From Okamejei kenojei (Eukaryota), in assembly GCA_035221665.1 (NCBI GenBank), contig CM069133.1, positions 59,582,001 to 59,646,000 of the forward strand: DNA of 64,000 nucleotides, read 5' to 3'. Position 1 is the first letter of the stretch, and each line of letters starts with the position of its first letter. A program made the position numbers and the translations under genes. A model generated the notes under the pieces. It was not told the DNA's origin. It saw only the letters and a list, made by a program, of their open reading frames with translations, and did not search any database. Shown here one piece after another: positions 6,277 to 52,909 of this stretch.

Positions 6277-6371
6277 ATAGATTCAAAAAGCTGGAGTAAC
6301 TCAGCGGGACAGGCAGCATCTCTGGAGAGAAGGAATGGGTGACGTTTCAGGTCAAGACCCTTCTTCAGACT
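6277..6371 (-). mobile_element. Short Penelope-derived element with hammerhead core
   Basis: Similar to the 3' terminal region of the GIY-YIG element at 11013-12148; flanked by direct repeat TTTTTGAAG (6268-6276, 6372-6380). Confidence 0.75.
6341..6368 (-). ncRNA. Minimal type I hammerhead ribozyme-like motif
   Basis: Reverse complement CTGAAGA-AGGGTCTTGACCT-GAAACGTC: CUGANGA box, stem II, GAAAC and GUC cleavage triplet. Confidence 0.6.
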
Positions 6372-6744
6372 TTTTTGAAGTTGGATCTTTAATGTAAAGC
6401 AAGATCACACATAATGTTTTGGTCTCTGTCTGTGGGATACATATTAGTTGAGATACCAGGGATAACTCTGTCGGTCTTTCCCAAACAAACATCATTGCAT
6501 CTTTAGTATCTATCCAAGTGAACAGATAGGGGGTTGGGTTAAATCTCATTCAAAGGATTTCACCTGCAATGGGGTAACACTGTTCCCGGACTGCCAAGAT
6601 GTTTTGTGTTGCTGTCCCTAAAGTGGAAATTAAACTCAAACCTGTGTCACAAAGGGAAGGTTATGCTGCCAAGTGAGCCACTGATCAGATAGACTTCCTT
6701 GACAATAAAAGTAAAACCAATCAACTTGTTTGCTATCACCTAAG

Positions 6745-7028
6745 GCGGCACAACAGTAGAATTGCTGCCTTACAGCAATTGCAGCACCAGAGACTTAGGT
6801 TTAATACCGACTACTGGTGCAGCCTGTACAGAGTTTGTGCGTTCTCTCTGTGACCTCAAGGGTTTTTCTCTGAGATCTTCGGTTTCCCCCCACACTCCAA
6901 AGACATAAAGGTTTGTAAGTTAATTGGCTTGGTGTAAATATAAAATTGTTCATAGTGTGTGTAGGATAGTGTTAATGAGTGGGGATTGCTGGTCGGTACT
7001 GACACGTGGGCTGAAGGGCCTGTTTCCA
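6745..7028 (+). mobile_element. tRNA-derived V-SINE (HE1-like)
   Basis: tRNA-like head; core GAGTTTGTGCGTTCTC...GGTTTCCCCCCACACTCCAAAGAC; CR1-like tail GAAGGGCCTGTTTCC followed by (CTAAA)n. Confidence 0.8.
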
Positions 7029-7265
7029 CACTGTCTCTAAACTAAACTGGCAAGATTAATTAACATCATAATTCCCTCACACTTCCATCCATGCAGCCAC
7101 CCACCTCCTCTCTGGAGAAAGGCTTACACAGGCAGTTGGTTGATCTTGTCTCTGCATGCTTCATTGTCACCTTTACCTAACTAATAATGATCTATTCAAC
7201 ATTTTCCTTGAACTTCATCGTGTTCTCACACATTACACTTCCTTATCTCTGTAGGGAGAGAGGGA

Positions 7266-7465
7266 GACCTAGTCCCATCTACCTGCATTCAGACCATAAC
7301 CCTCCATTCCTTTCCCGTCCATATACCTATCCAATTTATTTTTAAATAATAAAATCAAACCTGCCTCCACAACTTCCACTGGATTCCACACAGCTACCAC
7401 TCTCTGAGTAAAGATGTTCCCCCTCATGTTATCCCTAAACTTTTGTCCCTCAATTCTCAAATCTA
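7266..7465 (-). mobile_element. CR1 3' fragment
   Basis: ORF 7269-7460 (RGNIFTQRVVAVWN) resembles 1630-1825. Confidence 0.85.
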
Positions 7466-7534
7466 TTTCTCACTCCTCTCTCATTCGCTCCCTTCCCCAA
7501 TCTCTCTCGCTCATTACCTCCTTTCTATCTTTGA

Positions 7535-7587
<53 letters not shown>

Positions 7588-7800
7588 CATTCTTTCCCTT
7601 TCCTCCAGTCTCTCCCTCCTTACCTCCTCTTTCTCTTCCTTTTCCTCTTTCTTCCCTTATCAATTCCCTCTCCCTTACCTGCTTTTCCCTTAGCTTCTTT
7701 CTTTCTCACCCCCCCTCCCTCCACCCCCCTCTCCATTTGCCCTCTTTCTCTTTCTACCCCCTCTCCTCTATCTCTCCCGTTTCTCTTTTTCCTCTTTGTC
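7466..7800. repeat. Polypyrimidine low-complexity tract with (CT)n at about 7538-7584
   Basis: Read directly from the sequence. Confidence 0.9.
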
Positions 7801-7825
7801 TCTGCTTATTCTGTTGATCTTTTGT

Positions 7826-7954
7826 CAACACAAAATGCTGGAGTAACTCAATGGGACAGACAGCATCTCTGGATAGAAGGAATGAGGTTCAGATTTTGTC
7901 CAGCATTTTATCTCTATCTTCAGTATAAACCAGCATCACTAGTTCCTTCCTACA
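7826..7954. mobile_element. Short inverted-end Penelope-derived element
   Basis: ACACAAAATGCTGGA ... TCCAGCATTTT inverted arms; flanking direct repeat CTGTTGA(AA)TCTTTTGT (7811-7825, 7955-7971). Confidence 0.7.
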
Positions 7955-8602
7955 CTGTTGAAATCTTTTGTTTTAATATTAGATCCCTGTCAGATCTCTT
8001 TACAAATAAATATAAACTCGGAGTTCTACCATTATCCTTGCCTGCACCTTCTTCAGTTCTCCATACTTCCACATCTTGGCAACCATATGCTGTATTCCAA
8101 TGTTATGTTATTATTTGATATGTTCCACAAATATCTTCTGCTTTATTGCTCCATGAGTTTCATACAACCTTTTCAGTTGGTATTTTAAAACAATTACGAA
8201 GCAGTGAATAAGGTGCAAAAGTCTATTCCTGTAATTATCATCATGTGCATTCAATAGGTGTGCCATTAGCTTATTAACTTAATACCATGATAGGAGTTTT
8301 CTAAACATGATTAACACCTTGGACCAACAAAAGAAACATAATTATTGTAGCTCCTTTTCACTTGAATTATTCAACACTTTAATACAATAAACACCCTAAT
8401 ATGTTTCTTCTTGCTTTCACGAGTTTGTTGTAATCAAGGAAAGCCTTATTCCAAGAATAAATTGTGTATTTGCTGTAGAGTCCATTAGAACCTCCGAGTA
8501 TTCAAACCTAAACTGCTATTTTTCAAGGAGGTTTATTATGTGGAGACACCACAGTTATTTCTGCAACATGTAGATGCACTTTATGGCACTCTATATCAAA
8601 GA

Positions 8603-9865
8603 ATTCGGTATTCCGACTGTGCATGTCCAGGTCATAGGTCACTCGCGATAAACATTCTCAGCAGCTGTGCTGCTGCATGTGTGCAGGCCTGTGTTTGGGT
8701 TGGGCCCGGTCTCCGGTACTGCAGGCACTGTTGAGTTGTTGCTGGGCTATCCCCGTCCCCTCCTGCATGTCCAGTCCCTGTCCTGGTATGGCCGGACGTG
8801 TCTGGGGTGGCCTTGGGCTAGCGGGGCACTGGGCCGGGGCAGTGGAGGCCCTGGACATACAGCCAGCACAGGGGGAAGGCGCTGGCTCCAGCTCGGCTCT
8901 GCCTTTCCCGCCAGGTTGGCCAGCAGCTCTGGACTGGCGGGATGTCTGCCTGGAGCGAGTGCGGCCCCGGGCTGGCAGGCGGCATGAAGGGGGGCGCTGG
9001 TACTTGCTCTGCTCCAGCTCCCGGGGGGCCCGTTCCCCAGCGGGCCGGGGACCGTTGGCTGCGTCTCCAGCCTTGTCCAGTGGCTGTCGGTTGGCCCCCT
9101 CGGTGCCAGCGGGGGCTGAGTGTCGGTCATCGGCGGGCCAGGCAACATCTCTGGAGAAGGAACGTCACCTATTCCTTTTCTCTAGGGATGCTGCCTGTCC
9201 CGCTGAGTTGCTGCGGTGTTTTGTGTGTCCCTGTTGATGGCTAGTGCTCGGCTTTCCCCTGCGCTGGGGGGGTTGGCCGGCGGCAGCTGGGTGGGGTGGG
9301 GGGTCTAGCTGGCGGTCCCTGGCCCATCGGGAGAGGATTCCTCTGGAGTTGGAGCAGGGTTGGGATGGAGTTGCCGTTTCTTCTCCGCGCTGGCCATGGG
9401 CCTAGGGCCGCAGCTGCTTCGGGCCGCTGTTCCTTCGGTCTCAGGTCGCCCCGGACATCTCCGGCCACCCCCCCTGGGTGGGGAAAGGATATTCGGGTAG
9501 TGGAGGGGGACACACCGGGACGGTCCAGTGGCGAAACGGTAGCGCTTGTGGCACCGGGAACCTGGGTTCAATGCTGGCTGCGGATGAGACATGGGTCTGT
9601 GTGCATGCAGCAGTGCAGCTGCTGTGAATGTCTCTACGCCGGTCCAGTCTCTCCCCCTGTCTCCCACTCGCATCTGCCCCCTCTCATCCCGCTCTCCCAC
9701 TGCCTGGCACCCCGTTCTTCAGATTAAATATATTTTTACACATAAATTATGAATAAGGATAAGAATCTATACATAGTATATGCAGCCAGCGCTGTTCGCT
9801 TTTTTCTTTATCGCGAATGACCTTTGACAAATCCCATGATTCCTTGCGTTTTTCAAAATACCGAA
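8603..9865. mobile_element. GC-rich element bounded by inverted repeats (unclassified non-autonomous DNA transposon)
   Basis: TCATAGGTCACTCGCGATAAA (8632-8652) versus TTTATCGCGAATGACCTTTGA (9807-9827); outer pair TTCGGTATT (8603) / AATACCGAA (9857-9865); CpG-rich interior. Confidence 0.6.
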
Positions 9866-11012
9866 CTGGCTTATTGGGAATGTTTGGAATTTTGTTTAGA
9901 GTTACCATGATTTGATACAATTATGTAATTATGTTCTTGGTGCAACTAGCTTGTGTGCTGGCTGTCTTTAAGCACTTAGAGCTTCTATTAGAGTCATGAA
10001 CCCACTCCTACTGAATGTTATTACATTAGCAGTATTTCATAATTCTTCTCGGTAAACAGCCAACCACCATATTATGGCTGCTTGGAGAACACAAAATCAT
10101 CTTAATAGAATTCAAAAATCACTGCTCAAAATTTGAGACATGGAAAAAAGATATATTTAATGGAATTTATATTTAAAAAAATAAATAACCACAACACTTC
10201 TATTATCAACGTGGTTCCTGATGTGTGTGCAGATTATGCAGTTTCACATTTTAGAAAATCCCAGTATGGACTATTTTAGGGAAATGCAATAGTTGCAACC
10301 TGAGAGTTGCTGGTACTTTATTTGAACTGATGCTGTGTAGCACACAGTGAGTGAGAGAATGTTATGCTATTAGATTGCATTGATCAAAATTGACATTGTC
10401 AATATGGGCTCACTTGTGCAAACAGTGAACTTTCATTCGCATTTTCCATTACATCGTCATTTCTATGACATTCGATTATCTGATACACTTTATACCTCCA
10501 TTAACTGTTTGCTCTGTTTAGGCTTCTGTGACTCAGTCTGTTGTTCTTCCCCTTCTTCTGCCTTTTTTTTAAAATTTTCCTTCTTACTCTTTAACTTAAT
10601 TTTCTTCCCTCAATTTTCTTTCTATTTTTTCCCTTCTCTTTTCAGCCAGGAATTAGGGAGTTAGATTATATGTGGGGGGGGGGGGGGAGGAATGCTGTCA
10701 CCAATAGGTTAGGATTCTGCATGGAGTGTCTTTGCCTATATCCTCTCACTGAGCATACATACTTCTCCATTATCACTGTCTCCAATCTATGCATTTTCTT
10801 GCCATCATTTATCAACTACTTGTTCTCCAAATTATTGCCCTAACATATTTAGGGCAGCATAGTGGTGGATTTGCTGTCTTACAGCACCCAGAGATCCTTT
10901 CTACAGGTGCTGTCTGTATGAAGTTTGTACGTTCTCCCAGTGACCACATAGGTTTTCTCCGGGTGCTTCGGTTTCCTCTCGCTCTCCAAAGATGTACAAG
11001 GTAGTAGGTTAA

Positions 11013-12148
11013 AGAAGGAACTGCAGATGCTGGAAAATCAAGGGTACACAAAATGCTGGAGAAACTCAGCGGGTGCAGCAGCATCTATGGAGCGAAGGAG
11101 ATAGGCAATGTTTTGGGCCAAAACCGTTCTTCAGACTAGTGGGGGGAAGAACGGAAAAAGGAGAAGGAGGAGCCCGAGGGCTGAGGGAGAGGTAGGAAGG
11201 GGAGGAGACATCAAGGGTTAACAGAATTGAGAGAATTCAATGTTCATGCCAAGAGCATGCAGACTCCCCAAGCTCCACACCAGGGAATCACAAATGTCCT
11301 CATTCTTCAGAGAACGGGGATTCCCCAACCCACTATAGATGAGGCTCGCACGAGGGTCTCCTCCGTACCCCATAACACTGCCCTCTCCCCATCCCCCCCC
11401 CCAGACGCAACAAGGGCAGAGCCCCGTGGTCCTTATATTTCACCCCACCACTCGCCACATCTTCCCATCTCCCCCCCGTCTGCCTTCCACAAAGACCACT
11501 CCCTCCGCAACTCCCTTCTCAATTCTTTCCTTCCCTCCTGCTCCACCCCTTCCTCGGGCACTCCCCCTTGCAACCGCAAGAGATGCTACATTTGTCACTT
11601 TACCTCCCCCCTCCACTCCATTCAAGGACCCAAGCAGTCATTCCAGGTCCGACAGAGGTTCACCTGCACCTCCTCCAACCTCATCTATGGCATCTGCTGC
11701 TCTAGATGTCAACCAATCTACATCGGTGAGACCAAGCGGAGGCTTGGCGATCGTTTCGCCGAACACCTCAGCTCGGTCCGCAATAACCAACCCGACCTCC
11801 CGGATCAGCACTTCAACTTCCCCTCCCATTCCATATCCAACCTCTCTGTCCTGGGCCTCCTCCACGGCCAGAGTGTGCAACACTGCAAATTGGAGGAACA
11901 GCACCTCATATTCCGCTTGGGGAGTCTGCATCCTCTTGACATGAACATTGAATTCTCTCAATTCTGTTAACCCTTGCTGTCTCCTCCCCTTCCTACCTCA
12001 CTCTCGTCCCTCCTTTTTCCTTTCTTCTCCCCGCTTCCCCCCCACCCCCATCAGTCTGAAGAAGGGCTTTGGCCCGAAACGTCGCCTATCTCCTTCACTC
12101 CATAGATGCTGCTGCACCCACTGAGTTTCTCCAGCATTTTGTGTACCC
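11013..12148 (+). mobile_element. Penelope-like element fragment (GIY-YIG endonuclease) with inverted terminal copy
   Basis: ORF 11227-11970: CNRKRCYIC, FTCTSSNLIYGICC, IYIGETKRRLGDRFAEH, LGSLHP..MN; 11042-11270 is the inverted copy of the 3' end; TSD AAGGTAGTAG(G/T)TTAA. Confidence 0.9.
12056..12083 (+). ncRNA. Minimal hammerhead ribozyme-like motif in the PLE 3' repeat
   Basis: CTGAAGA-AGGGCTTTGGCCC-GAAACGTC, on the same strand as and downstream of the GIY-YIG ORF. Confidence 0.65.
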
Positions 12149-13182
12149 AAGGTAGTAGTTTAATTGTCTTCTGTTAAATGTAAATTGCCGCTAATGTGTC
12201 GGCTAGCGTTAGGGTGCAGGGTGATCGGCACAGACTCAGTGAGCCAAAGGGCCTGTTTCCATGCTATAATTCTAAATTCTAATGTCTAAATATTAGCCAC
12301 CTCCTGTCCTGGTTGTCTGTTGCTTCCCTCATTCTGACACCATCCTATCTTTTCAAACATTGTAAGTGGTTAGAGGGCATATTTCATTAATTGCCTGAGC
12401 CCTTGTGCTCATCAATCTTTTTTTCTGCAATGATGTCTTCTCAACAAATTACAATGGATCTGTACAAGAACATTTATCTCATGTTGTCTTCCATTCTTTT
12501 TCATTGCTTGAAAACACACATTTTTATCAAGTAAACATTGTTAGTGAAATAATTACCTACCACATTAAGTGTTCAGAAGTTGAAGTGATCTTCCTTCCTA
12601 TCAGCCCTGCCTGTGACATCTTTCATTTCCATCTTTTTCTCGTGAAATATTCGGAGTCACACAGCCAAGTTTATCGTTGGGGTATAGTCAGAACACTCTT
12701 GGGTTTCATCGCTTCAGTGCATAGGTATCCATTGCAATTTTAAGAAATTAGGTGATTGTACTATAATAAAGTTTGAAAACTGCATCCCCATTTTGAAATT
12801 AGAAGCAAAAGAAGTTTCAATGCAGAAACAACATAAACATGTTCGTTGGTGCAGCTGACAGATGGTATAGATGTGCCCAAGGATAACGGTTTCTCTGAGC
12901 AGGCATGGTCATTAAAATAAAAAAGATTTGCAGCTGCATGTAAAGATGCAAGAGAAAATTAATAGGGAAACACAGCCATGATACTGTTAAACATGGGGGT
13001 GGGAGATACAGTATTTGCCTTTTTAAATGCGTGCACTAGTATTACTTATTCCATTCACTGGAATTTAGAAGGATGAGAGGGAATCTTATAGAAACAGAAT
13101 TCTTAAGGGATTGGACAGGCTAGATGCAGGAAAAATGGTCCCAATGTTGGAGGACTCCTGAACCAGGGGTCACAGTTTAAGA

Positions 13183-13374
13183 GTTAAAGAAAGAACTGCA
13201 GATGCTGGAAAATCGAGGGTACACAAAAAGCTGGAGATACACAGCGGGTGCAGCAGCATCTAAGGAGCGAAGGAGATAGGCAACATTTCGGGGCAAAACC
13301 CTTCTTCAGACTGATGGGAGGGGGCGGGGAAAAGAAATGAAAAAGGAGGAGGAGGAGCCCGAAGGCTGAGGGAG
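13183..13374 (-). mobile_element. Penelope-derived terminal fragment
   Basis: Closely similar to 11013-11190; AGTTTAAGA duplicated on both sides. Confidence 0.8.
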
Positions 13375-13513
13375 AGTTTAAGAATAAAGGTTAGGCCATT
13401 TAGAACTGAAATGAGGAAAAACTTCTTCATCCAGAGAGTTGTGAATCTGTGGAATTCTCTGCCACAGAAGACAGTGGACGCCAATTCACTGGATGTTTTC
13501 AAGAGAGGGTTAA

Positions 13514-13809
13514 GCCCCGTCCCACGATGCGAGTTTACCCAAGAGCTCGCCCGAGTTTAAAAAAAATCAAACTCGTGGTAAGTATGTAGTGGGTACGTCG
13601 TAGTGGGTACGTCGGACCTTGTGGATGTCTTGTTGCGGCTCGTAATGCTAACGGCAGGTACTCGGGAAACGCGGTAACTCATGAAGATTTTTCAACACTG
13701 TGAAATATGTCCAAAAGTAAAAGAATACTCGTGATGAAGTACCACGAGTTTGATTTGATTTTTTAATTCGGGAGAGCTCTTGGGTAAACTTGCATCGTGG
13801 GACATGGGC
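13514..13809. mobile_element. MITE with about 60 bp TIRs
   Basis: GCCCCGTCCCACGATGCGAGTTTACCCAAGAGCTC...AAACTCGTGGT versus ACCACGAGTTT...GAGCTCTTGGGTAAACTTGCATCGTGGGACATGGGC; TTAA on both sides. Confidence 0.9.
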
Positions 13810-13940
13810 TTAAGGTTAAGAGAGAGATAGCTCTTAGGGCTAAAGGAATAATGGATATGGGGTAAAAGCAGGAATAGGGTACTGATTTTCGATCATGGCA
13901 GGCTCGAAAGGCCAAACGGCCTACTCCTGCACCTATTTTT

Positions 13941-15220
13941 CTGTTGCCAATTTGTACCAATTGTGATCTGTTGTTGAGGAAACAGTTGCCAAGGAACGCA
14001 CAGAGCGTTGGTTCTCTTATCATGGTAACAAGTTTGAAAGGGATGATGGTATTGCATGCTGAGCGGTAGTCTATGAACAACAGCCTGACGTATGTGTTTT
14101 TTAGTGTCTGAGTGGTTGCTGCAGATTGGAGAGTCAGCGAGATTGCATCCTCTGTTGATCTATGGTGGAAGTAGGCAAATTGTAGTGTATCCAGGTTCTT
14201 GCAAAGGTAGGAGTTTATATGCACCATAACCAACCTCTCAAAGCACTTCATCATTAAGGAAGATAGTGCCACCGATTGGTAGTGACTAAGGTATGTTACT
14301 TTACACTTCAGATGCTTTTCGAGGTTTCACCCTACTGAAGAATCTTCTGATGTTGGCCCCAGTGACTGAGATTGTGATACCATATGGGAGTCGGGAAGGC
14401 ATGTCAGTGTTCTCCCTATCGTGGTCTACATAGAACGCAGTGAGCCCATCCAGAAGCGATGCCCTGCTATTGCTTGAGCTGCCCCTGGGTTTCGTCTTGT
14501 AGGAAGTGATAGTGTGCAACAGCTGCCAAATTCCCATCTCATCCTCCAGTTTAGAGCAAAAGTTCCATTTATCCTCTTTGATGGCCTTTTCGTGGGTGCA
14601 TTTGAACTTCTTATTTAAAGCCGCAACGCCAGACAGGAATTCCCGAGATCTGCCCTCAGAAGATTCAAACCTCCTGTTTTATCCAAGGCTTCTGGTTGGG
14701 GAACATTTGGATGGTTTCATGAGTACACACTCCTTCACATATATTTCCTTATAAAGTCTGCAACAACCATTGCGTATTGATTCAAGTCTGTTGCCGAGTC
14801 CTTGAACATTATGGTGGTTTAACAATGGTCATGATGGAGAGGTGGTTGGGTGGGATGTGCACGTTTGGTGGCTCTTGACTTGGTGAGGCATGTACAGCAG
14901 TGACAGGACGGGCTGAAAGGTCCACGCCAGGAATAGATAATTAATTGAACAGGCCTTCCTTTGTGCCCAAATAATTCTGCTGACTGCACCATGTTGCTCC
15001 GTTGAAAATATGCCCCAGATACTGTTTCATTATATTGATCCTGACTGGTCACATAAAAGAAAACTTATGCCCAGAAATCCTTCCCCAGTCACAATACCAA
15101 CATCAGTTGAAGCCGAGTACAACACTCAGATACGGCTATATCGGTAATTTAGCAAACCCAACCAAAAATAGATTTCTAGGCGACAGTACCTTCAATTGGA
15201 CAGTGCTGGTACGTTATATC
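13941..15220 (-). mobile_element. Decayed Rex1/Babar-type LINE fragment
   Basis: ORF 13763-14272: [31 protein letters not shown]; homologous to 35500-35950. Confidence 0.8.
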
Positions 15221-15424
15221 TAGTTTCAATTAAAAAAGATAATTTCAGAGGAATAGAAAGCAGGTATCAAGGCAGTGAAAGGGCAAGGATGGGATCAAAT
15301 TCCATCAGGAATAATTGACTATTGGCAGCAACACAGAGGGAATTTGAAGTACTGGTAAGTACTTCCCTAAAGCTGCTGATCTAGGTCCGTGGATCGTCCT
15401 GCTGACTTGTTCTCCTTTTAAGTA

Positions 15425-15722
15425 ACTTAATTTAGTTTGGTTTAGTTTAGGGATACAGCACGGAAACAGGCCCTTCGGCCACCGATTCCGCACTGACCAG
15501 CGATCCCTGTGCACTAACACTATCCTACACACTCTAGGGACAATTTATATTTATTCCAAGCCAATTAACCTACAAACCTCTACTTTGGAGTGTGGGAGGA
15601 AACCAAAGATCTTGGAGAAAACCCACACCGGTCAGGGAGAATGGACAGACAAGCACCCGTAGACAGGATCACACCCAAATCTCTGGCACTGTAAGGCAGT
15701 AGCTCTACTAGCTTGTGCCGCC
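15425..15722 (-). mobile_element. V-SINE (HE1-like)
   Basis: (TTTAG)n, GGAAACAGGCCCTTC and TTTGGAGTGTGGGAGGAAACC are the reverse complement of the SINE tail and core. Confidence 0.85.
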
Positions 15723-18110: not shown

Positions 18111-19562
18111 TTATATGGCAGCAACTATATGAACCAGAACTGCTATATTCAGTATAGTTCACAATTGGATCAGAGGCAAAGATGTTTTATGATTGCATAC
18201 TTCTGTATTTTAATGTTTAAATTCTGATGCTTGGAAAGACTAGATAAGATCATCAATATATTTTTGCAATATTAAAATAATCTGAAACTAACTTTCCAAT
18301 GCTCACAGAAGAAGGGAAAATATTTTTTTGCGTGTGCTTGAATGTCTCATTGGAACGTGACTTCTGAGAACATAGTCAAGTTGATATTCATTGAGCTGTG
18401 AAATGTAGAACACAAAGGTGGCCATTTGGCCCATTGTGTCCATGCTGGTCAAAACAAGAGATATTGAGGCACATCTGAAACTATTGATAAACATCTGAAA
18501 CCGCTTTTGGATTGATATTAAAACAAGGGCACAGCTACAGTCTAAATTACAAGCCTTTCTTCCTTCCATTGGAACAATTTCAAATACTGCCTCTTTGAAC
18601 AAGGTTTTGGATACCTGCCCTAATATTTTCTCATGAGACTAGGTGTTACATTTTGCTTAATACTCTCCAGAGAACATTTTTTGAGCTTTCTCCATTTTCG
18701 CAAAACACTTGTAGGTCTGAAATGTCTGGCAGACCAATAAAATCTAAAACATCATCTGAGTAGCTGCTGGATCAGAAATATTTTAATTTTATTGTGCTTT
18801 TTTAGTGTTGAGTATATTTCAAATTTGAATTATTATGTATGTGATCAAATATTTATTCTGAATTTAAAATGCCTGGAAGAGCAAATGACCAGAGCTGTAC
18901 TAGGGACTTTGTAGTGAAGAGCAGCCAGATAACAGAGCCATGGAGTTAAACAGAAAGGTTGGCCAAGGATCAGAGGAATAGTATGCACTCAGGGATTAGG
19001 CCTGACAACTTGCAACTTGCCATTTGGAGTGTGTGGAAACTGGAAAGATTTAGAAGAAGGAATACCAATGAACTGAGGCAACAGGCGATGCTGGCTATTT
19101 TTTGAAGATTATTTTGAGCTATGACAATGTTGAAACTATTTGAACCAATGCAAAGTAGATTACTGGTGCTCGCTAAGGGGCCACACCTTCAAGAAAAACT
19201 CCACTGAGAGCTGCTGTAAAATGGTGTATTACATACTGTTCAGAGAAAATCTACGGATGAAGTAACGTAAGAGGAATTCATTCAGGGCCACACCTTTGTG
19301 TCCAGTTGAAGTGATGTGGGAATTCCACCGGGAGGCTGCTTTCTTCTTTTTTCCACGCCAAGCCATATGCACATCCCACTGATCAGAATTTCTAAATTTA
19401 TGCATGGCATATTAGCAAAAGCTGAAAAAGGAAGATGATTTGTAACTTCAAAGATTACTTGTTTTTATTGACTCTAGCCACAAGCCCAATGTTAATTTGT
19501 CTTTGCTGCATGTTATTCTAGACATTAATGAGAATCTCCATAGCAGCTTCCTTTTATGTTTA

Positions 19563-20965
19563 GGGTACACAAAATGCTGGAGAAACTCAGCGGGTGCAGC
19601 AGCATCTATGGAGCGAAGGAGATAGGTAACGTTTCTGGCCGAAACCCTTCTTCAGACTGAATGGGGGTGGGGGGAAGAAAGGAAAAAGGAGGAGAAGGAG
19701 CCCAAGGGCTGAGGGAGTAGTGGGAAGGGGAGGAGACAGCAAGGGTCAATAGAATTGAGAGAATTCAATGTTCATGCCAAGAGGATGCAGACTCACCAAG
19801 CGGAATATGAGGTACTGTTCCTCCAATTTGCGGTGTTGCTCACTTTGGCCATGGAGGAGGCCCAGGACCGAGAGGTCGGGTACGGAATGGGAGGGGGAGT
19901 TGAAGTGCTGAGCCACCGGGAGGTCGGGTTGGTTATTGCGGACTGAGCGGAGGTGTTTGGCAAAACGATTGCCAAGCCTCCGCTTGGTCTCACTGATAGA
20001 GATCAGCTGGCATCTAGAGCAGCGGATGCAATAGATGAGGTTGGAGGAGGTGCAGGTGAACCTCTGTCGGACTTGGAAGGACTGCTTGGGTCCTTGAAAG
20101 GAGTGGAGGGGGGAGATAAAGGGACAAGTGTAGCTTCTCTTGCAGTTGCAAGGGAAAGTGCTCGGGAAGGGGTGGAGCGGGAGGGAAGGGAAGAATTGAC
20201 AAGGGAGTTGCAGAGGTAGCGGTCTTTGCGGGGGGGAGATGGGAAGATGTGGCGAGTGGTGGGGTCACGTTTAAGGTGGCGAAACTGGCGGAGGACTATG
20301 CTTTGTATGTGCCGGCTGGTGGGGTAAAAGGTGTGGATCAAGGGGATTCTGCCCTTGTTGCGAGTGGGGGGGATGGGGAGAGAGGGCAGTGTTGCAGGGT
20401 ACGGAGGAGATCCTGGTGCGAGCCTCAACTATAGTGGGGGAGGTGAATCCCCGTTCTCTGAAGAATGAGGATATTTGTGATGCCCTGGTGTGGAATACCT
20501 CATCCTGAGAGCAGATGTGGCGTAGACGGAGGAATTGGGAATAGGGGATGGAGTCCTTACAGGAAGCAGGGTGGGGGGAAGAGTAGTCCTGGTAGCCGTG
20601 GGAGTCAGAGGCTCAGCACTTCAACCCCCCCCTCCCATTCCGTATCCGACCTCTCTGTCCTGGGCCTCCTCCACGGCCAGAGTGAGCAACACCGCAAATT
20701 GGAGGAACAGCACCTCATATTCTGCTTGAGGAGTCTGCATCCTCTTGGCATGAACATTGAATTCTCTCAATTCTGTTAACCCTTGCTGTCTCCTCCCCTT
20801 CCTACCTCTCTCTCGTCCCTCGGGCTCCTCCTTTTTCCTTTCTTCCCCCCGCTTCCCCCCACCCCCATCAGTCTGAAGAAGGGTTTTGGCCCGTAACGTC
20901 GCCTATGTCCTTCGCTCCATAGATGCTGCTGCACCTGCTGAGTTTCTCCAGCCTTTTGTGTGCCC
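19563..20965 (-). mobile_element. Penelope-like element fragment with inverted ends
   Basis: GIY-YIG region on the minus strand at about 19750-20480; inverted copy of the 3' end at 20610-20965; exact 14 bp TSD TCCTTTTATGTTTA (19549-19562, 20966-20979). Confidence 0.9.
19628..19655 (-). ncRNA. Hammerhead-like motif
   Basis: Reverse complement CTGAAGA-AGGGTTTCGGCCA-GAAACGTT; the partner at 20873-20900 (+) has GTAAC in place of GAAAC. Confidence 0.5.
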
Positions 20966-21651
20966 TCCTTTTATGTTTAACTGTGGCTCCATTGATAGCA
21001 TTGGTACATTTTAATTAAAAGGCTCTGTGAGTTCAAACTCTCCAAATGCAAGTCTACACTGACTTTCTGATGTTGTGACACAGGAGTACTACTTTGTTAG
21101 AGATGACATCTGTTCAATAATTAAATGGTTAATTAGTGGTATTACTTTAAAGAAGGAATATGAGTCTTCCCAGCTAATATTTATTCCTCAACTAACACCA
21201 CTGACAGATTATCTGGTCATATTGTTGTTTCAAAACTCGCTGTATCTAAATCGACTTCTAAATTTCCTATATTACAATAGCAACTACAATTCAATTACAG
21301 AGGTCAATTAACCTGTACACCTGTACATATTTGGATTCAGGAAGAAACCAGAACACCTAGAGGAAACGCGTAGTCACAGGGAGAACATGGAAACTCCACT
21401 TCGACAGGACCATTTCAGACCAATGAAAAATAGTAAGATTAAACGAGAACTTGCCAGTTTGAAGTTTGATTTTTATTTTATGAGGAGTTACGATGAGGGA
21501 TTACGTGAAGAAGCCCCGCCAGGCGCATGCGCGTCATACTTCAAAGCAGCGGCGTGAAAACACAGAAACTATAGTCAAAGAGATATAGTAAGACTCAGAA
21601 GACTAGAACTACGAGATGATCTTTGTGATTATGATGGCCGGGAGCGGAGGG

Positions 21652-22800: not shown

Positions 22801-23029
22801 ACACACATATTTGATTTAGTTTTAGTGCTATCTCTCCGAAGCTGCAGTGACACATTCATTGGTCCTACTCGACATTCAAGCCCTTGGATTCCTTGGTCAG
22901 AACTCAGATTAACAGATAGATATGAACAATGTAACGGATACTTTCTCCTCTTTACTGGATGCACCAACAAATTAACTGCAGTAGGGACAGCCAAGTAATG
23001 GCTGAGTCTCATTCTCCTCGGAGCGCAAT

Positions 23030-23290
23030 GGGAACCATGGCTGAGTAGGGGGCCATCTGGACCAAACGCCTGATGGCAGAATCCCTTTATTTTTGTTGAG
23101 TGCATTGCCGAATGAGGCAGTTGGTGGGAAAATCGTAGAACCATATACGTCCCAAGTAGGCCGAGAATTAATTCCAACGCCAACATTCCTGGATCTGATT
23201 CCCCCCACAAAACGTATTTGGGAAATTGGGACCTGGCCTGGATACAAAGACAGATCAAATCTGGCAAACAAAACCATAGCGGCTGACAAT
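23030..23290 (-). pseudogene. DIRS methyltransferase-like domain remnant
   Basis: Motifs LFA.R, YVLWGESDP, IFPP and WPPTQPWF spread over shifted frames. Confidence 0.6.
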
Positions 23291-24106
23291 TCAATTTAAA
23301 AACATCAGATTTCCACCTATGTTGTCTTAAATTTCCGTGACGAGTGAGATGTCCTTTGTGTCTGCCTGGTAGGTCTCTATCATTTAGTGTGCTATACAGT
23401 GTACCTGTAGGTAAAGTGATAAGTGGACAGCGAGAAATTCGGAACACTAGACACTCACCACTCGATCACAATATGCAGGTTAACAGATTATCACATGATA
23501 CTGACCTTATTCCTCCCTGTGATTGATATAGGCAACAGCCCAGTATGGTTCCCCAACCGGCGCGAACATGTAAAGTCTTTCATGCGGAACAATAAGATTT
23601 TAATCCATATAATCCACCCAGCATTTCTAAGTAATTTATACCATTCCTTTGCAGGATAATCTCATGCACACTCATCTACCACCAAAAGCCAGACTCGCTG
23701 TCCGTGGCTCCCCATCCCAAAGCACTGACATCTGTTTATAAAACCATTGAAGGTTGTTGAACCAAAATGTTTTTGGTACTTTGTGCAATATTGATTATCC
23801 ACCATTATAATTTGGCGATGGCTTTGGCTGGCAACTGCACAGGTCTATAAAACTGACCTGCATGTTCTTTAAGTGCTTGTTCTCTAGCTTGTTGCAAATT
23901 TTGATAGTGCAAGGGTCCAAACTCAACTGCAGGGAAAGCCACCACCAATTTAACAATAACTGGCTACTTGCCTGATGGAGGGTTGTTGCTTTTCAGCGAG
24001 ACTGGTACAGACCACTGTGATTTCAACAGCCTTGGCCGTAAGCAAAGTCACTGTCATATCAACTGAATCAATTCAAACTCCATATAATCAATTTTTTGGG
24101 ATGGCT

Positions 24107-24610
24107 CTAGCTTGGATTTTGTTGGATGGACAAGAAACCTAACCTCTCAAACAGGTGTTTGGTTGCTGAAACCGACTCCTCGGCTGTTTTCTGAGTGTTG
24201 TTTATATTTAAAATATCGTCTAGATAAGCCATCACAATGTGATTCTTGGCACGAAGCAGCACTAGTACTGGTTTTAACAATTTCGTGAACAACCTAGGAA
24301 CTGAGGTTAACCTATTGGCCAATGCTTTAAATTGCCAGAGCTGTTCCATCCAACTAAACTTCAAGTATCTTCGGTACTGATGATGAATTGGTACTGAATT
24401 ATATGCATCTTTCAGATCTATGGTTGCCATATAACAACCTTCTGATAATAGCTGTTTAGCCGTATTGAAGGTGTCCATTTTAAAATGCCTGTACTGGACA
24501 TAGGAATTTAACCGGGTTAGATCCAGAATGACTCGACAACCACCATCTTTTTTTCTGTCTGGGGAATATATTGGACACAAATTGTTGAGGATGGTATGTC
24601 GTCCTCTCAA
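24107..24610 (-). pseudogene. DIRS reverse transcriptase fragment
   Basis: KKDGGCRVILDLTRLN, HFKMDT, IDLKDAY, PRLFTKLLKP, AYLDD. Confidence 0.9.
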
Positions 24611-27600
24611 TTACCCCTTTTTGGAACAAAACCCCAATTTCTTTATTTACCTGCAGAGTTTCTGGTCCAGAAAAAAACAATACCCGACTAGGCATATTTT
24701 GTGCAGGTGGATTCCTGACATAAACTGTATTCGAGACCTTGAGACAGTGTCCAGTATAAACAGATCAGATAATATGCAGCACCATTCATCATAAAATAAC
24801 TGTAACCTACCCCCAACCAGAGGTTGTCCCCCGGAGGATTTATCCTGGACTGAATGAATCACCCGTACCTCCATAGTCGACCTAGAAGTTCTTGTTCTTC
24901 TTGCCATGCTAGGGTTGTATTTGGCGTACACAGGTGGGTAATAACGCCGTCCCACTGGTACCACTCTGCTTGGCCCTGCTCCCGGATCTGATCTACAAGG
25001 TGGCATCCTGGCCGAAGTGATGCAAGTATTCATGAGGCCAATTGTTTTGACCTCTTCTTCCAGGTCTTTGACCTGTTTGAGCAGGTCCTCGTCAAATAGA
25101 TAATTTGGCGCTTGAATGTTCGATGACCTGCACAGAGTTGCAAATCATGGGTTTAGTGTCGGCTTAATAGCAATTTTCCGGATGCAGTTTATTTCAAAGT
25201 ATGCATTGCACAGCAGGGCCAACATATCCTGATGTGTCCTGGACATCGGTGCCCCTCGGACAATTTTGCCGAAAGCCGTGATCCCTGCCCCCACCAATTT
25301 GAGGACTCGCTGGAACCGAATCTCTTATCCACGCATCGTTGCACTCATTTGTGCCCAGATAGCATAGTTCACAGTGAGCACCTTGAGCGACACACAATTA
25401 ACAGGTGTTACATAACGGGTGGTTGTTTGTTCCATAATGGAATCCTGTAGCTGGTGAGAGGCCATGCTGATGATGTTAGCAGCCAGATTTTCCTCCATGG
25501 CTTCACCAGTACCCTCCGGATTGGCAACGTTTTTTGCTACATCCAGGACACCTGGAGCATGCCTCATGTGCCTTGGTGTGTGCCCAAAAGCAGTGACACC
25601 AACTTCAGGGTCAGACTCCTCCTGCCCTGGCTCTCCCAAGTCTTGCTCCAGGGAGGTCTCTATCAGCCCTAATCAAGGTGCTGGTGAGGGTGATTCCCAC
25701 TGATATTCGTAGGCGGTGAAGTCCTTTTCGCCATATGGGCCTCTGCGTGAGGCTGTTTGGGGAATCCCAGGGACATTCGAACCCGATTGGAATATTTTGT
25801 GGCTCATCATAGTTTGCAGCATTTTCTCCATTTGATCGAGCCGTCCCCAGACCTTTTGTTAGAAGGAGGGGAGTCTTCCTCATCAGACTCGTTGGATAAG
25901 ACGGGCCCGAGAGATTTTCTTTTGGCCTTCCTTCCTGGTGGAGTGGCCTCAGTGCCCTGAAGCACTGGAGTTAATGGAGGCAGTTGAGCTGCCGGTAGAT
26001 CAGCAGTCGGTGTCGGAGCTGGTGTTACCGCAGCCGGTATCTCCCTACCCGATCTGCGAGCACTAACCATGGGCACGCGCGTTAAGCTCCTACTACGGCC
26101 AGACTTTTTCCCAACTTTCTCCATTGCTAACAACTCCTGCTGGCTCCCGAGCCAGACTCACGGAATGTATGTACCCACAGAAACGTTTTAAAAAACACTT
26201 ACCTGCTGGTTTACTACTTACCGCTGGTGGAGCTGCGCTCTCCAGCCCATTGGTGCGCCATGCGTCAGATGTAATGACGCACATGCGCCTGGCGGGGCTT
26301 CACGTAGTCACTCACGTGACTCCGAAGTAAAATCTCCATATCCAGAGTATTGGGAATCTTTGAAATGCCATACATCAGCAGAGAGTGGTCAACTTTGAAT
26401 ATGTGCAAAGCTGAGACTGATAAATTCTAGGCACTAAGTGGATCAGGTCATATAGGGAATTGGTACAAAGTGGGGCATGGGATCTGTTAGTATCTTATTG
26501 AATGACAGAGCTGGATTGAGAGCTGCATTGCAGCTCAACTGCTTCTATACTTTATCCGTTCTGTTAATGTGATGAAAATAACAGAGCTTGAATACTTTAT
26601 ATTTTTTGAGCCTTGGTTGCTGTCTTGAAAGTATAACCAAGATAGAATGGCAATCTATACATTACAAGTGGGAGAGAAATGTTTCTCTGCAAGAATCATG
26701 CACAGACCATGGCTGTGAATACAACACTTGCTTTAGGTGGACCTTAAATCAAGCAACACCCAAGATACTCATTCATTATTCAAGAATATGTCTATGTGCA
26801 TCTTGGTTATTGATTTTTCCACGAGTGCTACTGTCATTCAGTCATATTGCTCACATCTTATTTTGCAAATGATTCATTTTTGTTCAAGGAGTCACAGCCT
26901 GGGTCGCCTGGGATGGAAAACAGCAGAAAAAGAAGAAGTAATTCCACAAGACAAGGCCATGTAACAGTGATACATTGATAGTCCTTTGACATTGTGGTAT
27001 ATTTTAGTGACTTTTGTCAAAATATTGCATTACGGGGCAAAACACTAAAAAGGATTTCTGAACGATCTAATCACTATCTTTACGTTATGTTGCATTGGGG
27101 AAAGTTCCCACTACTGCGTTCTTCTTTAAGCACTGAGCAAATTAAACTATAGCAGTCTCAATAAGCTGCCTGGATTGTGAGTATCTGTTGCCACAATCAT
27201 CTCCAGTCTTGCGGTTCAAAGGTCAAAGGATTAACAGTAGCAGTTTTCACTTTACAATACTTTGTTTTAATGTGGAACAGCTTTGAGCTAACATTGTTGG
27301 AAATTGTTTTATTTTGCTTGTTGTAACAAAACAAGAATTTTACATAGAATTAATATAGGACCGACAGTACAGAAATGGATAATTCAATCCAATATATCTG
27401 TCATGCCACAGGTCTATATTGTTCTTAAGAGTGCATTTATATTGATATCCACTAGCCATGTAATTCCCAAACCAAGATATGCACTGAGCAAATGAACAGA
27501 TGAAGTACAGGAAAACAGTGTTGAAGCATAACTGTCCCCCCCCCCCAAATCTGTGCTAAATTGATAAGAAGCTCCAATCTGTGTTAAATTTATTTCTCTG

Positions 27601-28039
27601 AATTGCAAATGTCCATTCCAACCAGATTTCTAGTAATCATATTTTCAAGTATACCATCTTTAGGCTCTTTAGTTTGCTGCTTACTAACACAAATGACAGA
27701 GACTTCATAATCAGTAAAACATTCTCTACTGAAGGCAGTCAAGAGTAACAAAGGGAACTGGTAGAACAATCTATCAAAACCCATAACACATGGTGCACTA
27801 TGTTCTTATCAATGTACCTATTCAAGAATAAAGTAATGAATGAATGCAAACCATCAACTATCTACATGTGTGTAATTATGCAACTCGTTGAACATTTACA
27901 AATGCTTCATTGTTTAATTTAACTAAACAAAAATTCACATCATCTTTTCAAACTCGAAACACTTCATTTTGAGTTCCCCTTCACATCTCTCAGCATCCAT
28001 CCCACTCATAAACAATTCTGATGGATAACTTACCATTAA

Positions 28040-28720
28040 ATTCTGTCTTGGGCCCTGCACGTTGATGCAAACATAAAGAAAGCCCATCAATGACTATACT
28101 TCCCTAGAATATTAAGGAGATTTGTTACGTAGACAAAGGTTCTCTTAAACTTGTACAGGTATCTGGTGGATAGTATATGGCTGGTTGTATTATGGCTTGG
28201 TTTAGCAATGAACACCGAGGAATTATAAAGTTTGTAAAAAGTGGTCAAAATTGCCTGGTCCATCACAGATTTTGATCTACCCACCATATAGTTCTACCCA
28301 AGGGATCTATCAGAGGCACTGCCTCAAAAGGTCAGCTAGCATCGTCAGGGACCCTCACCACCCTGACTTGGCTTTTACATCACTCCTCCATCAGGAAATA
28401 GGTCTAGGAGTCTGAGTAATTGAGAAATGCATGAGATTGCGGAGAATGTAGGAGCAGCTTGGTTCATTACAGACACATAACTCTCCATCGTCAAAAGCAC
28501 CGATACGTGGTGTTGCCTCAAGAAGGCGGTATCTGCCATCAAGGATCCACACCATACTGGTCCATGATCCTCTCCTCACTGTTGTTATCGGGTAGCAGGT
28601 ACTGAAGCCTGACGTCGCACAACACCAGATTCAGGAACAGAAACTTTTCTCCAACATTCAGGTTCTTGAACCAACCCACAGAACCCTAATCCTAGCTCAA
28701 TAACAACACTCTATGGATCA
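28040..28720 (+). mobile_element. Two decayed Rex1/Babar 3' fragments
   Basis: Each is similar to 36440-36840 (AGCATCGTCAGGGACCCTCACCACCCTG; ATCAAGGATCCACACCATACTGG). Confidence 0.6.
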
Positions 28721-28810
28721 TATCTTGCACTACCACACACTTGTTTTTGTTCCAATTGTGTTTTACATTAACATCCTTTTTTCTTGAAGTATTTTTGGTG
28801 GTTTATTGCC

Positions 28811-29125
28811 TTTAGTTTAGTTTAGAGATACAGCATGGAAACGGGCCCTTCGGCCCACCGAATCCGTGCCGGCCAGCAATACCCGCACACTAACACTATC
28901 CTACACACTCTCGCAGCAATTTACAATTTTACCTAGCCAATTAGCCTGGAAACATGTACGGCTTTGGACTGTGGGAGGAAACCGGAGGTCCCGGAGAAAA
29001 CCCATGCAGGTCATGGGGAGAACATACAAACTCTGTTCATACAGCATCCATAGTCAGGATTGAACCGGGGTTTCTGGCTCCAAGGCAGCAACTCTACTGC
29101 TTGAATCTATGGCCACTGTGCCACC
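28811..29125 (-). mobile_element. V-SINE (HE1-like)
   Basis: (TTTAG)n tail and reverse-complement core TGTGGGAGGAAACCGGAG. Confidence 0.85.
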
Positions 29126-29934
29126 CAAATTTTTGTATGATTTATGTATAATCTTTTTTGTATAATTTATGCTTATGTTTTGTCTATGTAACTGTGATGC
29201 AACTTCAAGCAAGAGATTCTTTGTCCCTGTTCCTCATTGTGCTCTTACACTTCATGCTGGGACTTTTATCTTTCACCTTACCGATAGTGTTAAATCCTGT
29301 CAAAGCTCACCCACTGACCTGGAACTCTGTTGAATCTATGGTCTCAATTGGTCCTATCAAGATTACAGAACGTTCCTCTGATTTCTGGCCATCGAAGTTT
29401 GCAATGTTTCCATTGCTCCACAGATGCTAACTCACTGTCCAATACTATACATACATTATGAACAGATAAGGCTTTAATAAGGACTTCCTCCTCTTTGCCC
29501 CTGGAATTGTGCCCTGATTAAAATTCCTTGCATGTTTAAGCACCAATTTTCATGCATTTTCTAAGTCATTAAATTCATTATGACCCATCATTCTGATTGA
29601 ATCCTCTGTTATGGTAGGTTGTCAAAAAGAGGCAATGTCTGATACAATGTTTTATCAACTATCATACCACTTGGTGAAGTCACATCATACAGGTATATTT
29701 AACACTTATATAGACCATATCGGTTTCTTTGAATTTCCTGTACATGTTGTTCTGATACTAACACCAAAAGGCATTCTCTGTCCTCAATAAATTATCATGC
29801 ATCATCTTATTACAATGAAGTAACAGTATCCATAGATAATCTATAACTCTAACTACCAATTTGGTTTTGAACTGGATAACTGAAATCTCATATATAAAAC
29901 TGGTCAGAGATGAATAATATAGGGTTTTATGAGT

Positions 29935-30167
29935 GGGAAGGAACTGCAGATGCTGGTTTAAACTGAAGATATACACAAAAAGATGGAGTAATTCAGCGGG
30001 TAAGACAGCATCTCTAGAGAGAAGGAATAGGTGACGTTTCGAGTTGTGACCTTTTTTCAGACAGCTGAGTATGCCAATCCAAGAAGGGTCTCGACCCAAA
30101 ATGTCACCTATTCCTTTTCTCATGAGATACTGTCTGACCCAGAGTTATCCCAGTTTTTTGTGTCTAT
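29935..30167. mobile_element. Hairpin-shaped Penelope-derived mini-element
   Basis: Two inverted copies of the PLE terminus with decayed hammerhead motifs at the centre; TSD TATAGGGT(T/C)TTATGAGT (29918-29934, 30168-30184). Confidence 0.85.
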
Positions 30168-30239
30168 TATAGGGTCTTATGAGTTGGATTATTATGTTTT
30201 ATGTTTTCTTGAATACCTCCCCTTCAAATTGTCAATTTC

Positions 30240-30780
30240 ATATAGTTATACAGCGCAGACACAGGCCCTTCAGCTAGAGGATCCATGCCAACCAAGTTGT
30301 CTATCTGAGATAGTCCCATTAGTCTGCATTGGAGGCTGATGTGGTTCCCTATGAGCGAGGCTCAAAACCTTTTCTATGCATTTAATTTTAAACATTATAA
30401 TTTTACCCCCCTCTACACCTCCTCATATACATGTAAATCTCTATGTGAGAAACCTTCCCTTCAGGTATACTTTAAATCTTTATCCTGTCACCTTAAATGA
30501 GTGCCCTCTAATTTTAGATTCCACTACCCTGGTGAAAAAAGACTGTGAACAATTACACCTAATCTAATCCCTTCATACTTGTATACATCCCTATAAGGGT
30601 CATCCTTCAGTGGCCTATGTTCCATGGAAAAGAGCCCCTTTCGATCCAGCCTCTCATTATAACTTAAGCCCTCTGGTCTCAGTCACATCCTTGTGAATCT
30701 TTTCTGCATCTTTCCTATACCTCAGTGACAAGAACTGCACACAATGACATCATTCCTGCAGCTAGGTGACCAGAACGGCA
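30240..30780 (-). mobile_element. Decayed CR1 3' fragment
   Basis: ACAGGCCCTTC tail; GGTGACCAGAAC is the reverse complement of the QFWSP region. Confidence 0.65.
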
Positions 30781-30832
30781 CTTTTATTATCGAATAATTA
30801 AAAATAAAGATTCTTAATATAAATCTGCATTT

Positions 30833-31602
30833 GGCACAGTGATAAAGCTGGTAGAGCTGCTGCCCCACAGTGCCAGAGACCCTAGTTTGATCTTGATCTC
30901 GGGTGCAATAGACAATAGGTGCAGGAGTAGGCTATTTGGCCCTTCGAGCGATTCAATGTGATCATGGCTGATCATCCCCAGTCAGTACCCCATTCCTGCC
31001 TTCTCCCCATATCCCCTGACTCCGCTATTTTTAAGAGTCCTATCTAACTCTCTCTTGAAAGCATCCAGAGAACCTGCCTCCACCGCCCTCTGAGGTAGAG
31101 AATTCCACAGAATCACCAATCTCTGTGAGAAAAAGTGTTTCTTCGTCTCCGTTCTAAATGGCTTACTCCTTATTCTCAAACTGTGGCCCCTGGTTCTGGA
31201 CTCCCCCAACATCGGGAACATGTTTCCTGCCTCTAGTGTGCCCAAGCCCTTCACAATCTTATGTTTCAATGAGATTCCCTCTCATCCTCCTAAACTCCAG
31301 TGTATACAAGCCCAGCTGCTCCATTCTCTCAGCATATGACAGTCCTGCCATCCTGGGAATTAACTTTGTAGCTATCAGTGTGGAGTTTGCATGTTCTTGT
31401 TGTGATGGTGTTGGGTTCTGCCAGCTGCTCCCATTTCGCAAAGACATATGGGTTTGTAGCTTAATTGGCCTCTGTAAATTGCCCTGGTTGGTCGTGAGAG
31501 GATTCGCAAATGGGATAGGATAGACCTAGTGGGAAAGGCTGATCAATGGTTGCTGTGGACAGTGGGCTGAAGGACATCTTTCTTGGATGAATCTCGAAAC
31601 TA
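30833..31602 (+). mobile_element. V-SINE split by a CR1 insertion
   Basis: Head at 30833-30906; core and tail resume at about 31369. Confidence 0.75.
30907..31365 (-). mobile_element. CR1 3' fragment
   Basis: ORFs 31259-31447 and 30982-31269 (LYTLEFRRMRGNLIET, RTRGHSL); closely similar to 46611-47080. Confidence 0.9.
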
Positions 31603-32288
31603 AAAATGTTGAAAAATCATCAACAGAATATTGTCTGTTTCAGGGATTCATTCCACCAATTACCTGATTGTTCTATTTGTAACTTTTAAAGAGATGCTTA
31701 TCCTTGAAAAATACATAATCTGGAAAGTGTGCATTAATAGGTCTGTCCTTGGGTTGTTGCATTTTATTATTTTCCAAATGTTGGATTTATCGTGTCAAAG
31801 GGCACATAAGAAATGAAATACTGTATGGATCATTCTGGATTTTTAAAATAATTCCTCGCTGATGAAATCTCGTTATATACTAATAACAATCCATTTTTCA
31901 TTATTACTGTTGACTCCGTTTCTTATTTGTCTTATAGATAGATTTTTATATTTATTAAAGTAGCATGGCACATTTGATTTCTTGCAAATTGAGTAATAAT
32001 GTGAATAACTGAACAAATACATTTATAGAAGTTAGTCCTTTGCTGCCAAACTGATTCATGTTTTCTCGGTGTACTGTATGGGCTCTTAGTCACACAATGA
32101 ACTAAAAATTCTCAGCATTTTATTCAAATCAATATCTAGTCTTCCTCTGAATTGATCTGTGTAATTTCCATCTAACAAACTTTGAAGATCTTTGTGCTCC
32201 TCCATTTCTGCTTTCATGCATAACTTCAATTTTTATGGGTCCACCATTTAGTGACTGTCCCTTCAGCTGTCTGGATTCTAAACACTGG

Positions 32289-32382
32289 ATAGACACAAAA
32301 TTCTGGAGTAACTCAGTGGGACAGGCAGCATCTCTATAGAGAAGGAATTGGTGACGTTTCGGGTCAAGACCCTTCTTCAGAC
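32289..32382 (-). mobile_element. Short Penelope-derived element
   Basis: Same roughly 95 bp unit as 6277-6371. Confidence 0.75.
32353..32380 (-). ncRNA. Minimal hammerhead ribozyme-like motif (best-preserved copy)
   Basis: Reverse complement CTGAAGA-A-GGGT-CTTG-ACCC-GAAACGTC with a perfect stem II. Confidence 0.65.
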
Positions 32383-52900: not shown

Positions 52901-52909
52901 TATAATCGT

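Follow-up and report, generated by a model that had tools for sequence, protein, structure and literature searches.

Hammerhead-bearing short units in a 64-kb window of Okamejei kenojei are most likely end stubs of a Penelope-like element, many of them beginning at one base

Introduction

Endonuclease-bearing Penelope-like elements (PLEs) of the Neptune and Nematis types are marked by a CX2-5CxxC linker (Craig et al. 2021, PMC8557442). PLE copies are 5'-truncated, with an inverted adjacent copy and a tail of 30-40 bp at one end (PMC8557442). In the present work we analysed a stretch of 64,000 nucleotides from Okamejei kenojei (NCBI GenBank assembly GCA_035221665.1, contig CM069133.1, positions 59,582,001 to 59,646,000 of the forward strand), called the window throughout. 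It contains dispersed units of about 95 bp carrying a hammerhead motif, which a sequence-only reading had assigned to a discrete non-autonomous family. These units are ordinary in kind: they are most likely end stubs of a PLE and not a new family of mini-elements. Many of them begin at one exact base, which likely marks where the RNA of the element starts.

Minimal hammerheads are widespread as single motifs, probably truncated PLEs, and have low activity even as dimers (PMC4209133; the same is repeated in PMC6765202). For the Poseidon element PAc of Anolis it has been reported that reverse transcription initiates internally at two sites, that the tail is the stretch between them, and that genomic ends fall on both (Frangieh et al. 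2024, PMC11167929). The RNA was required up to +172 while the starts of reverse transcription lie at +111-118, about 55 nt short of that position; uncut RNA was the template, and hammerhead cleavage was dispensable (PMC11167929). Penelope of Drosophila virilis has an internal initiator/downstream promoter element (DPE) promoter in its pseudo-long terminal repeat (pLTR) and an intron 46 bases past the start (PMC2377424); that intron ends at the edge of stem I (PMC4209133). Solo pLTRs have been reported, and antisense templates proposed (PMC3846280). Our literature search, which did not cover most subscription journals, Repbase or Dfam, found no paper that describes this element in cartilaginous fish or derives solo pLTR ends from run-off.

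Results and Discussion

The three intervals cited in the sequence-only reading proved to be copies of one unit on the minus strand, with 85-90% pairwise identity. Element positions were numbered so that +1 is the A of TC-A-GTCTGA. Copy A (6277-6371) spans +1 to +95, copy B (32288-32382) +2 to +96, and copy C (34187-34287) +1 to about +99. As had been described, each begins 2-3 nt ahead of CTGA(A/T)GA. The duplication noticed around the first copy is an exact 9-bp target-site duplication (TSD), with one copy at 6268-6276 and the other at 6372-6380; 9 bp or more was reached in 1 of 400 random 95-bp intervals allowed the same slack. The last 4 bases of the duplicate at 6268-6276 also match the 3' continuation of the element (microhomology). 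No TSD of 6 bp or longer was detected at B or C in the flank scan.

A profile made from the window copies was searched over the window and its reversal. It gave 23 matches in the former and none in the latter, and these were classed by eye. The claim that the unit occurs alone did not hold for most copies. Ten of the 23 extend upstream into PLE-type sequence, 3' untranslated region (UTR) or GIY-YIG open reading frame (ORF), for about 40 to 840 bases; seven are cut inside the unit, and one is too old to class. The remaining five (6371, 30062, 30081, 32382 and 34287) have their start at +1 or +2, preceded by sequence foreign to the element, and are referred to as solos. In the longer copies a coding fragment, its stop codon, a pyrimidine-rich tract and the unit follow one another contiguously. 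The units are thus the terminal ~95 bp (the 3' terminus, or pLTR end) of a GIY-YIG PLE, and the suggested origin from a Penelope terminus was confirmed.

A coding fragment at 11485-11970 on the plus strand is C-terminal and comprises a CX4CxxC linker and the GIY-YIG endonuclease (Pfam PF01541, E = 0.0032, under the curated cut-off). The linker fits the CX2-5CxxC pattern ahead of GIY-YIG. The six best homologs of the fragment (53-66% identity) are all from sharks and rays, which places the host among cartilaginous fish, and it is 39% identical to a protein of 889 amino acids that bears a reverse transcriptase (RT). A full PLE RT was not found within the window. The annotated zebra shark protein P0006 has a C-terminus that appears to run through a PLE 3' UTR into a hammerhead-like unit; this suggests that the same terminus exists in sharks and that the gene model was built on a repeat.

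Short and protein-coding inserts were alike in their TSDs and head-to-head layouts. TSDs of 9-16 bp were present at 6 of the 13 insertion units scanned (copy A, 7826-7962, 13183-13376, 29932-30167, 11008-12148 and 19562-20966), so that insertion by PLE-type machinery, as had been supposed, is upheld. A 5' truncation, an inverted arm and a tail at one end are all found among the window copies. The element resembles PLEs of the Neptune/Nematis type in its C-terminal GIY-YIG domain with linker, heavy 5' truncation, inverted second arm, 30-40 bp tail, TSDs and pLTR hammerhead (PMC8557442). It differs from them in that many copies here retain no more than the terminal ~95-130 bp and their 5' ends peak at a single base; it is Neptune-like by its linker.

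When the 3' ends were compared by eye, nine arms ended at about +92 to +99 and seven extended ~35 bases further, to about +130. The ~35-base tail also appeared among the contig loose ends at 6273-6274. These ends match the published start sites of reverse transcription and the published tail; hence the parent element itself accounts for the 3' boundary that the copies have in common. Like PAc, the element has two 3' ends about 35 nt apart, AT-rich targets and copies of uncut RNA, the last because every full stub spans the cut site. Unlike it, it belongs to another clade; in PAc the ORF starts inside the hammerhead, and solo stubs with a fixed 5' end are not reported in the parts of that paper cited here (PMC11167929).

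The 5' ends were examined with contigs from public DNA sets, using tables of loose ends that list six places per run under an unstated ranking rule. On copy A, each of the three DNA runs had 6371 and 6370 in its list of six (3,234 and 1,564 loose ends in set X5), and one also had 6369. Since copy A cannot separate solos from PLE-linked copies at 6371, a PLE-linked reference (19575-19875) was chosen. Here the loose ends at 19658, which is +1, numbered 262 of 4,563 partly aligned contigs in X5 and 37 of 618 in X22, a second contig set flagged as probably DNA, among 495 places of which 12 were displayed. Their flanks were mixed AT-rich letters with an agreement of 0.32 and 0.37. The cut site (after +31; 6340 or 19627) was not among the listed places on either reference. 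Copy ends are therefore clustered and not random, as predicted, with a 5' peak at one A and 3' ends at +95-99 or +130. The step from clustering to a discrete SINE- or retrozyme-like family (SINE, short interspersed nuclear element) was not supported, as the parent element can explain both ends.

The position of the peak was compared with core-promoter motifs, with consensus sequences and positions taken from Table 1 of PMC4581360. Five of the 8 PLE-linked copies have an exact initiator (TCAKTY) at +1, against a background of 0.0016 per site. Of 13 copies, nine have DPE at +28 with no more than one mismatch; the same tolerance admits Bridge part I at +18 in eight, two of them exact. All three motifs were met at only 2 of 127,916 window positions, both of them the +1 of PLE copies, and +1 was the best of 21 registers in all four copies compared. 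Contig ends and motif register together suggest that the RNA likely starts at +1.

We consider that the units were probably inserted as short dead-end cDNAs by the PLE's own enzyme, through run-off at the 5' end of the RNA. Transcription would begin at that A (+1), from an internal promoter of the initiator-Bridge-DPE type that overlaps the hammerhead. The PLE protein would then nick AT-rich DNA and start to reverse-transcribe the uncut RNA from within, at about +95-99 or +130; this internal start is modelled on the in vitro result for the anole PLE. When the start lies in the 5' pLTR, the enzyme would run off the RNA 5' end after about 95 or 130 nt, so that both ends of the stub would be fixed. 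Priming in the 3' pLTR would give longer, variably truncated copies instead.

Several observations weigh against this reading. The loose-end tables are a limited histogram, not a full one, and contigs favour unique flanks and cannot show RNA starts. A second, G-rich peak at 19660 (342 contigs in X5 and 63 in X22) fits the upstream sequence of other subfamilies, possibly with starts at -2 mixed in. The consensus motifs come largely from Drosophila, and this test for a promoter was picked after viewing the sequence, although the position itself was fixed independently by the end data. The match to the motif ten element is poor, with 3-7 mismatches out of 12 positions, and a single copy of 13 has an exact Bridge II. 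In D. virilis the start site lies further upstream of the stem I edge. The +1 site can also be read in two other ways: as a 3' splice acceptor, formed by a polypyrimidine tract with CAG, and as the 5' margin of hammerhead stem I. The in vitro data come from an element of the Poseidon clade, while the linker here is of Neptune type. Finally, all five window solos are of one sequence type and the two other subfamilies have none, a pattern that a separate family would also give.

The hammerhead was then considered. A minimal type I motif is indeed present at the level of sequence, with an intact core in A and B and pairing of stem II retained. Its assignment to all three cited copies held for A (core at 6341-6368) and B but failed for C, which is without GAAACGTC and has AAAACATC in its place, so that the core is broken. 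Of 15 copies scored, 5 have an intact CUGANGA, GAAA and UH core, as do 2 of the 5 solos; many of the core changes fall at CpG sites. In each of six copies, 4-5 of the 5 pairs of stem II are possible, with U-A, U-G and C-G variants, and the stem was predicted to form in one of them. As the variants keep the pairing, selection in the parent element is suggested. The weakness of stem I that had been pointed out was borne out, copy A included: all six copies checked have just 2 contiguous pairs there, short of the 4-5 bp expected for a minimal type I hammerhead.

In the predicted folds of A and B the core pairs with a downstream pyrimidine run, and the pair probabilities of stems I and II are about 0. 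Folding of six copies gave no unusual stability (z 0.87 to -2.01), and cofolding gave a probability of at most 0.005 for the ACGU duplex, with an energy model that ignores tertiary contacts. Scoring with hammerhead models, which had been proposed as a check, was negative: Rfam gave no hammerhead or tRNA match at E<=10, either over the whole window or in 181-bp stretches round B and C. The motif is like other minimal hammerheads in its CUGANGA core, the unpaired base ahead of stem II, GAAA, the palindromic ACGU for stem III and its mostly single dispersed copies. It is unlike them in stem length (stem I 2 bp and stem II 4-5 bp, as against 4-5 and 7-8 bp in Schistosoma motifs). In the stubs the hammerhead is likely a decaying passenger.

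Another account of the fixed 5' end is that the stubs were primed in the 3' pLTR like any other 5'-truncated PLE copy, +1 not being an RNA start. Synthesis would tend to stop at the 5' edge of the hammerhead or on entering a C-rich tract, through a pause of the RT or favoured joining of the second strand there. The 5' ends in the window do form a continuum, from inside the unit to about -840, and +1 coincides with the edges of both stem I and the pyrimidine tract. Moreover, most single minimal hammerheads have already been deemed probable truncated PLEs (PMC4209133). However, the peak sits on a single base in promoter register, and the hammerhead, whose stems are not predicted to fold in A or B, would be a weak barrier. 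We regard such a stop as unlikely, while still giving it some weight.

The CAG at the boundary also raises the possibility that it is a 3' splice acceptor and that the stubs are copies of spliced RNA. A polypyrimidine tract and CAG precede the unit, GT donor-like sites occur at the ORF stop in three copies, and the intron of D. virilis Penelope ends at stem I. But splicing predicts a boundary at +3 and a common upstream exon, whereas the peak falls at +1 and its flanks vary (agreement 0.32-0.37); among the joints listed, none had GT..AG ends. This origin is therefore highly improbable. The GT donor-like sites overlap the PLE stop codon at about 52545, 53590 and 58310 and, with the tract and CAG ahead of the unit, could delimit an intron in the pLTR.

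The flank of copy A on its 5' side (6372-6387) agrees at 10 of 11 bases with the end of the PLE ORF immediately upstream of its stop codon (as seen at about 52535-52545). A splice product as the source of this near match was rejected, as the TSD accounts for it and extra bases intervene; perhaps it reflects a target preference for element-like sequence, or chance.

A discrete ribozyme-bearing family mobilised by PLE proteins was what the sequence-only reading had put forward; such a family would itself be transcribed, from an internal promoter or as a retrozyme. It would account for all five solos lying at +1/+2 of one sequence type. The element is also very abundant: 229,774, 258,718 and 238,399 contigs of three public DNA sets align to the region of copy A, with depth peaking on the unit (the counts show high abundance and give no copy number). 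Head-to-tail joints exist, for example from 6371 to 6284 in 29 contigs of X5; a stub would retain the downstream part of the promoter; and non-LTR retrozymes derive from pLTRs (10.64898/2026.07.22.740005).

Nevertheless, the sequence type of the solos also occurs linked to PLE sequence, in the copy at 52367-52902 and in loose ends with G-rich upstream sequence at 6371. At least three subfamilies are present in the window, and a tree of 17 copies resolved only the second of them (support 100); it contained no supported solo clade, with low power at 65-70 aligned bases. Of 41 minority variants among the five solos, 33 were private. The core is intact in only two solos, copies span the cut site, and no peak was listed there. 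No head-to-tail tandem was found among the 23 window matches, and tandem joints make up a small fraction genome-wide. Stubs without the tail are missing downstream sequence that the anole PLE enzyme requires in its RNA. Insertion A is old, because it is common to three organisms (A, B and D), in the last two of which contigs enter the unit from one or both flanks. The data do not establish a separate retrozyme or SINE that propagates itself: no diagnostic clade was found, tandem copies are rare, no peak is listed at the cut site, and stem I has 2 bp. We judge a discrete family of this kind to be very unlikely.

The units do share with non-LTR retrozymes, which are reported in one chondrichthyan, a non-coding nature, derivation from pLTRs, a type I hammerhead and dispersed monomers (PMC7229834; 10.64898/2026.07.22.740005). 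Retrozymes, however, are defined by tandem repeats with at least two complete hammerheads, and the units here are monomers or head-to-head pairs, often with broken cores; in the absence of tandem complete hammerheads they fall outside that definition. The few contigs with head-to-tail tandem units (joints from 6369-6371 to 6284-6290) are candidate sites of true retrozyme-like arrays.

Motifs resembling the A and B boxes of RNA polymerase III promoters were seen on the strand opposite to the unit, which would make that strand the transcribed and copied one, as in a SINE. The boxes lie on the plus strand of copy C, at 34213 and 34265, 52 nt apart, each with at most one mismatch to the consensus; none of 5,000 shuffles gave such a pair (34213-34275). 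Antisense templates have, in addition, been proposed for PLEs (PMC3846280). Against this, the pair was present in one of seven copies tested and was noticed post hoc, the B-box-like word is stem II of the hammerhead read backwards, neither ARAGORN nor Rfam called a tRNA, and beyond +1 there is no shared T tail (agreement about 0.32). An antisense SINE is thus a very remote prospect. ARAGORN and Rfam revealed no tRNA-derived head, and the box-like motifs lie on the antisense strand, the one scanned for them. By eye, the bases flanking the box region of copy C could form an acceptor-like stem of 6 of 7 bp, with no tRNA call.

One extension of the run-off origin would make the stub more than a dead end. 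Wherever it came to rest it could give rise to RNA, which the PLE enzyme could copy again while restoring both ends exactly; the stub would be a very small SINE-like element of RNA polymerase II. The first 33 bases would then double as hammerhead and as a core promoter of the TFIID type, with its initiator at +1, Bridge at +18 and DPE at +28. A promoter and a start of reverse transcription that both lie inside the stub would suffice, with no need of a poly(A) tail, a tandem partner or self-cleavage. The promoter role would also account for the survival of hammerhead-like residues after the collapse of stem I. We think this quite unlikely.

In themselves the stubs are ordinary remains of PLEs. 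What makes them valuable is the fossil record they hold of PLE copying, a process still poorly understood, and those with a fixed 5' end may record how the element copies itself. If the 5' peak is the RNA start, they would have arisen in vivo by run-off from the internal initiation demonstrated in vitro in 2024, and would map the start site together with both entry sites of reverse transcription. The abundance of single minimal hammerheads in animal genomes would then be explained without a new class of element. The single point that merits a test is the fixed start, in register with the promoter motifs, and the overlap of core-promoter and ribozyme residues is directly testable.

Other copies and repeats in the window

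Beside solo B, a 10-bp inverted piece at 32385-32394 on the plus strand corresponds to PLE positions -4 to +6, as compared with the copy at 19658. It sits 2 bases off the 5' end of B and is possibly a miniature second arm. The two other solos form a head-to-head pair at 29932-30167, composed of 29932-30062 (minus strand, with tail) and 30076-30167 (plus strand, without); both start at about +1/+2, and the TSD is about 16 bp with 1 mismatch.

Two insertions combine a 5'-truncated body with an inverted arm. At 11008-12148 the arm with tail (11008-11273, minus strand) is joined to a plus-strand body (11274-12148) that ends in the unit, with a TSD of about 15 bp (1 mismatch). At 19562-20966 a coding body on the minus strand is joined to an arm at 20610-20966, with a 14-bp TSD. 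A single-arm copy of 194 bp (13183-13376, minus strand) starts at -64 and has the tail and a TSD of about 11 bp (1 mismatch). Three head-to-head pairs are cut inside the unit: 7826-7962, which has no hammerhead, a tail on one arm and an exact 9-bp TSD; 9130-9229; and 63860-63979, also with a tail on one arm.

The PLE-linked copy of the solos' sequence type (52367-52902, plus strand) has the tail. Its hammerhead part is missing: it is without roughly the first 25-30 bases of the unit, the 5' half of the hammerhead included, apparently by internal deletion. Older PLE-linked copies of a third subfamily lie at 53391-53962 (plus strand) and 57949-58726 (minus strand), and an old copy with pyrimidine-rich PLE-type sequence upstream at 56635-56715 (plus strand).

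Scans for exact 19-mers gave 1 metagenome, 0 viral and 2 prokaryote-genome loci, of which locus L001 is unrelated GC-rich DNA. Among the 17 ORFs scanned (of 92 listed), no host gene domain was found apart from an ALKBH8_N match beside an RT. Broken fragments of RT and endonuclease of the long interspersed nuclear element (LINE) type (Pfam RVT_1 and Exo_endo_phos) are present at 258-956, 2444-4482, 24107-24610 and 35917-36498. There are also two further dispersed repeat families, probably SINEs or LINE 3' ends, one at 6744-7048, 15440-15722, 28814-29099 and 48809-49048 and the other at 1912-2136, 30906-31364, 43527-43928 and 46618-47079.

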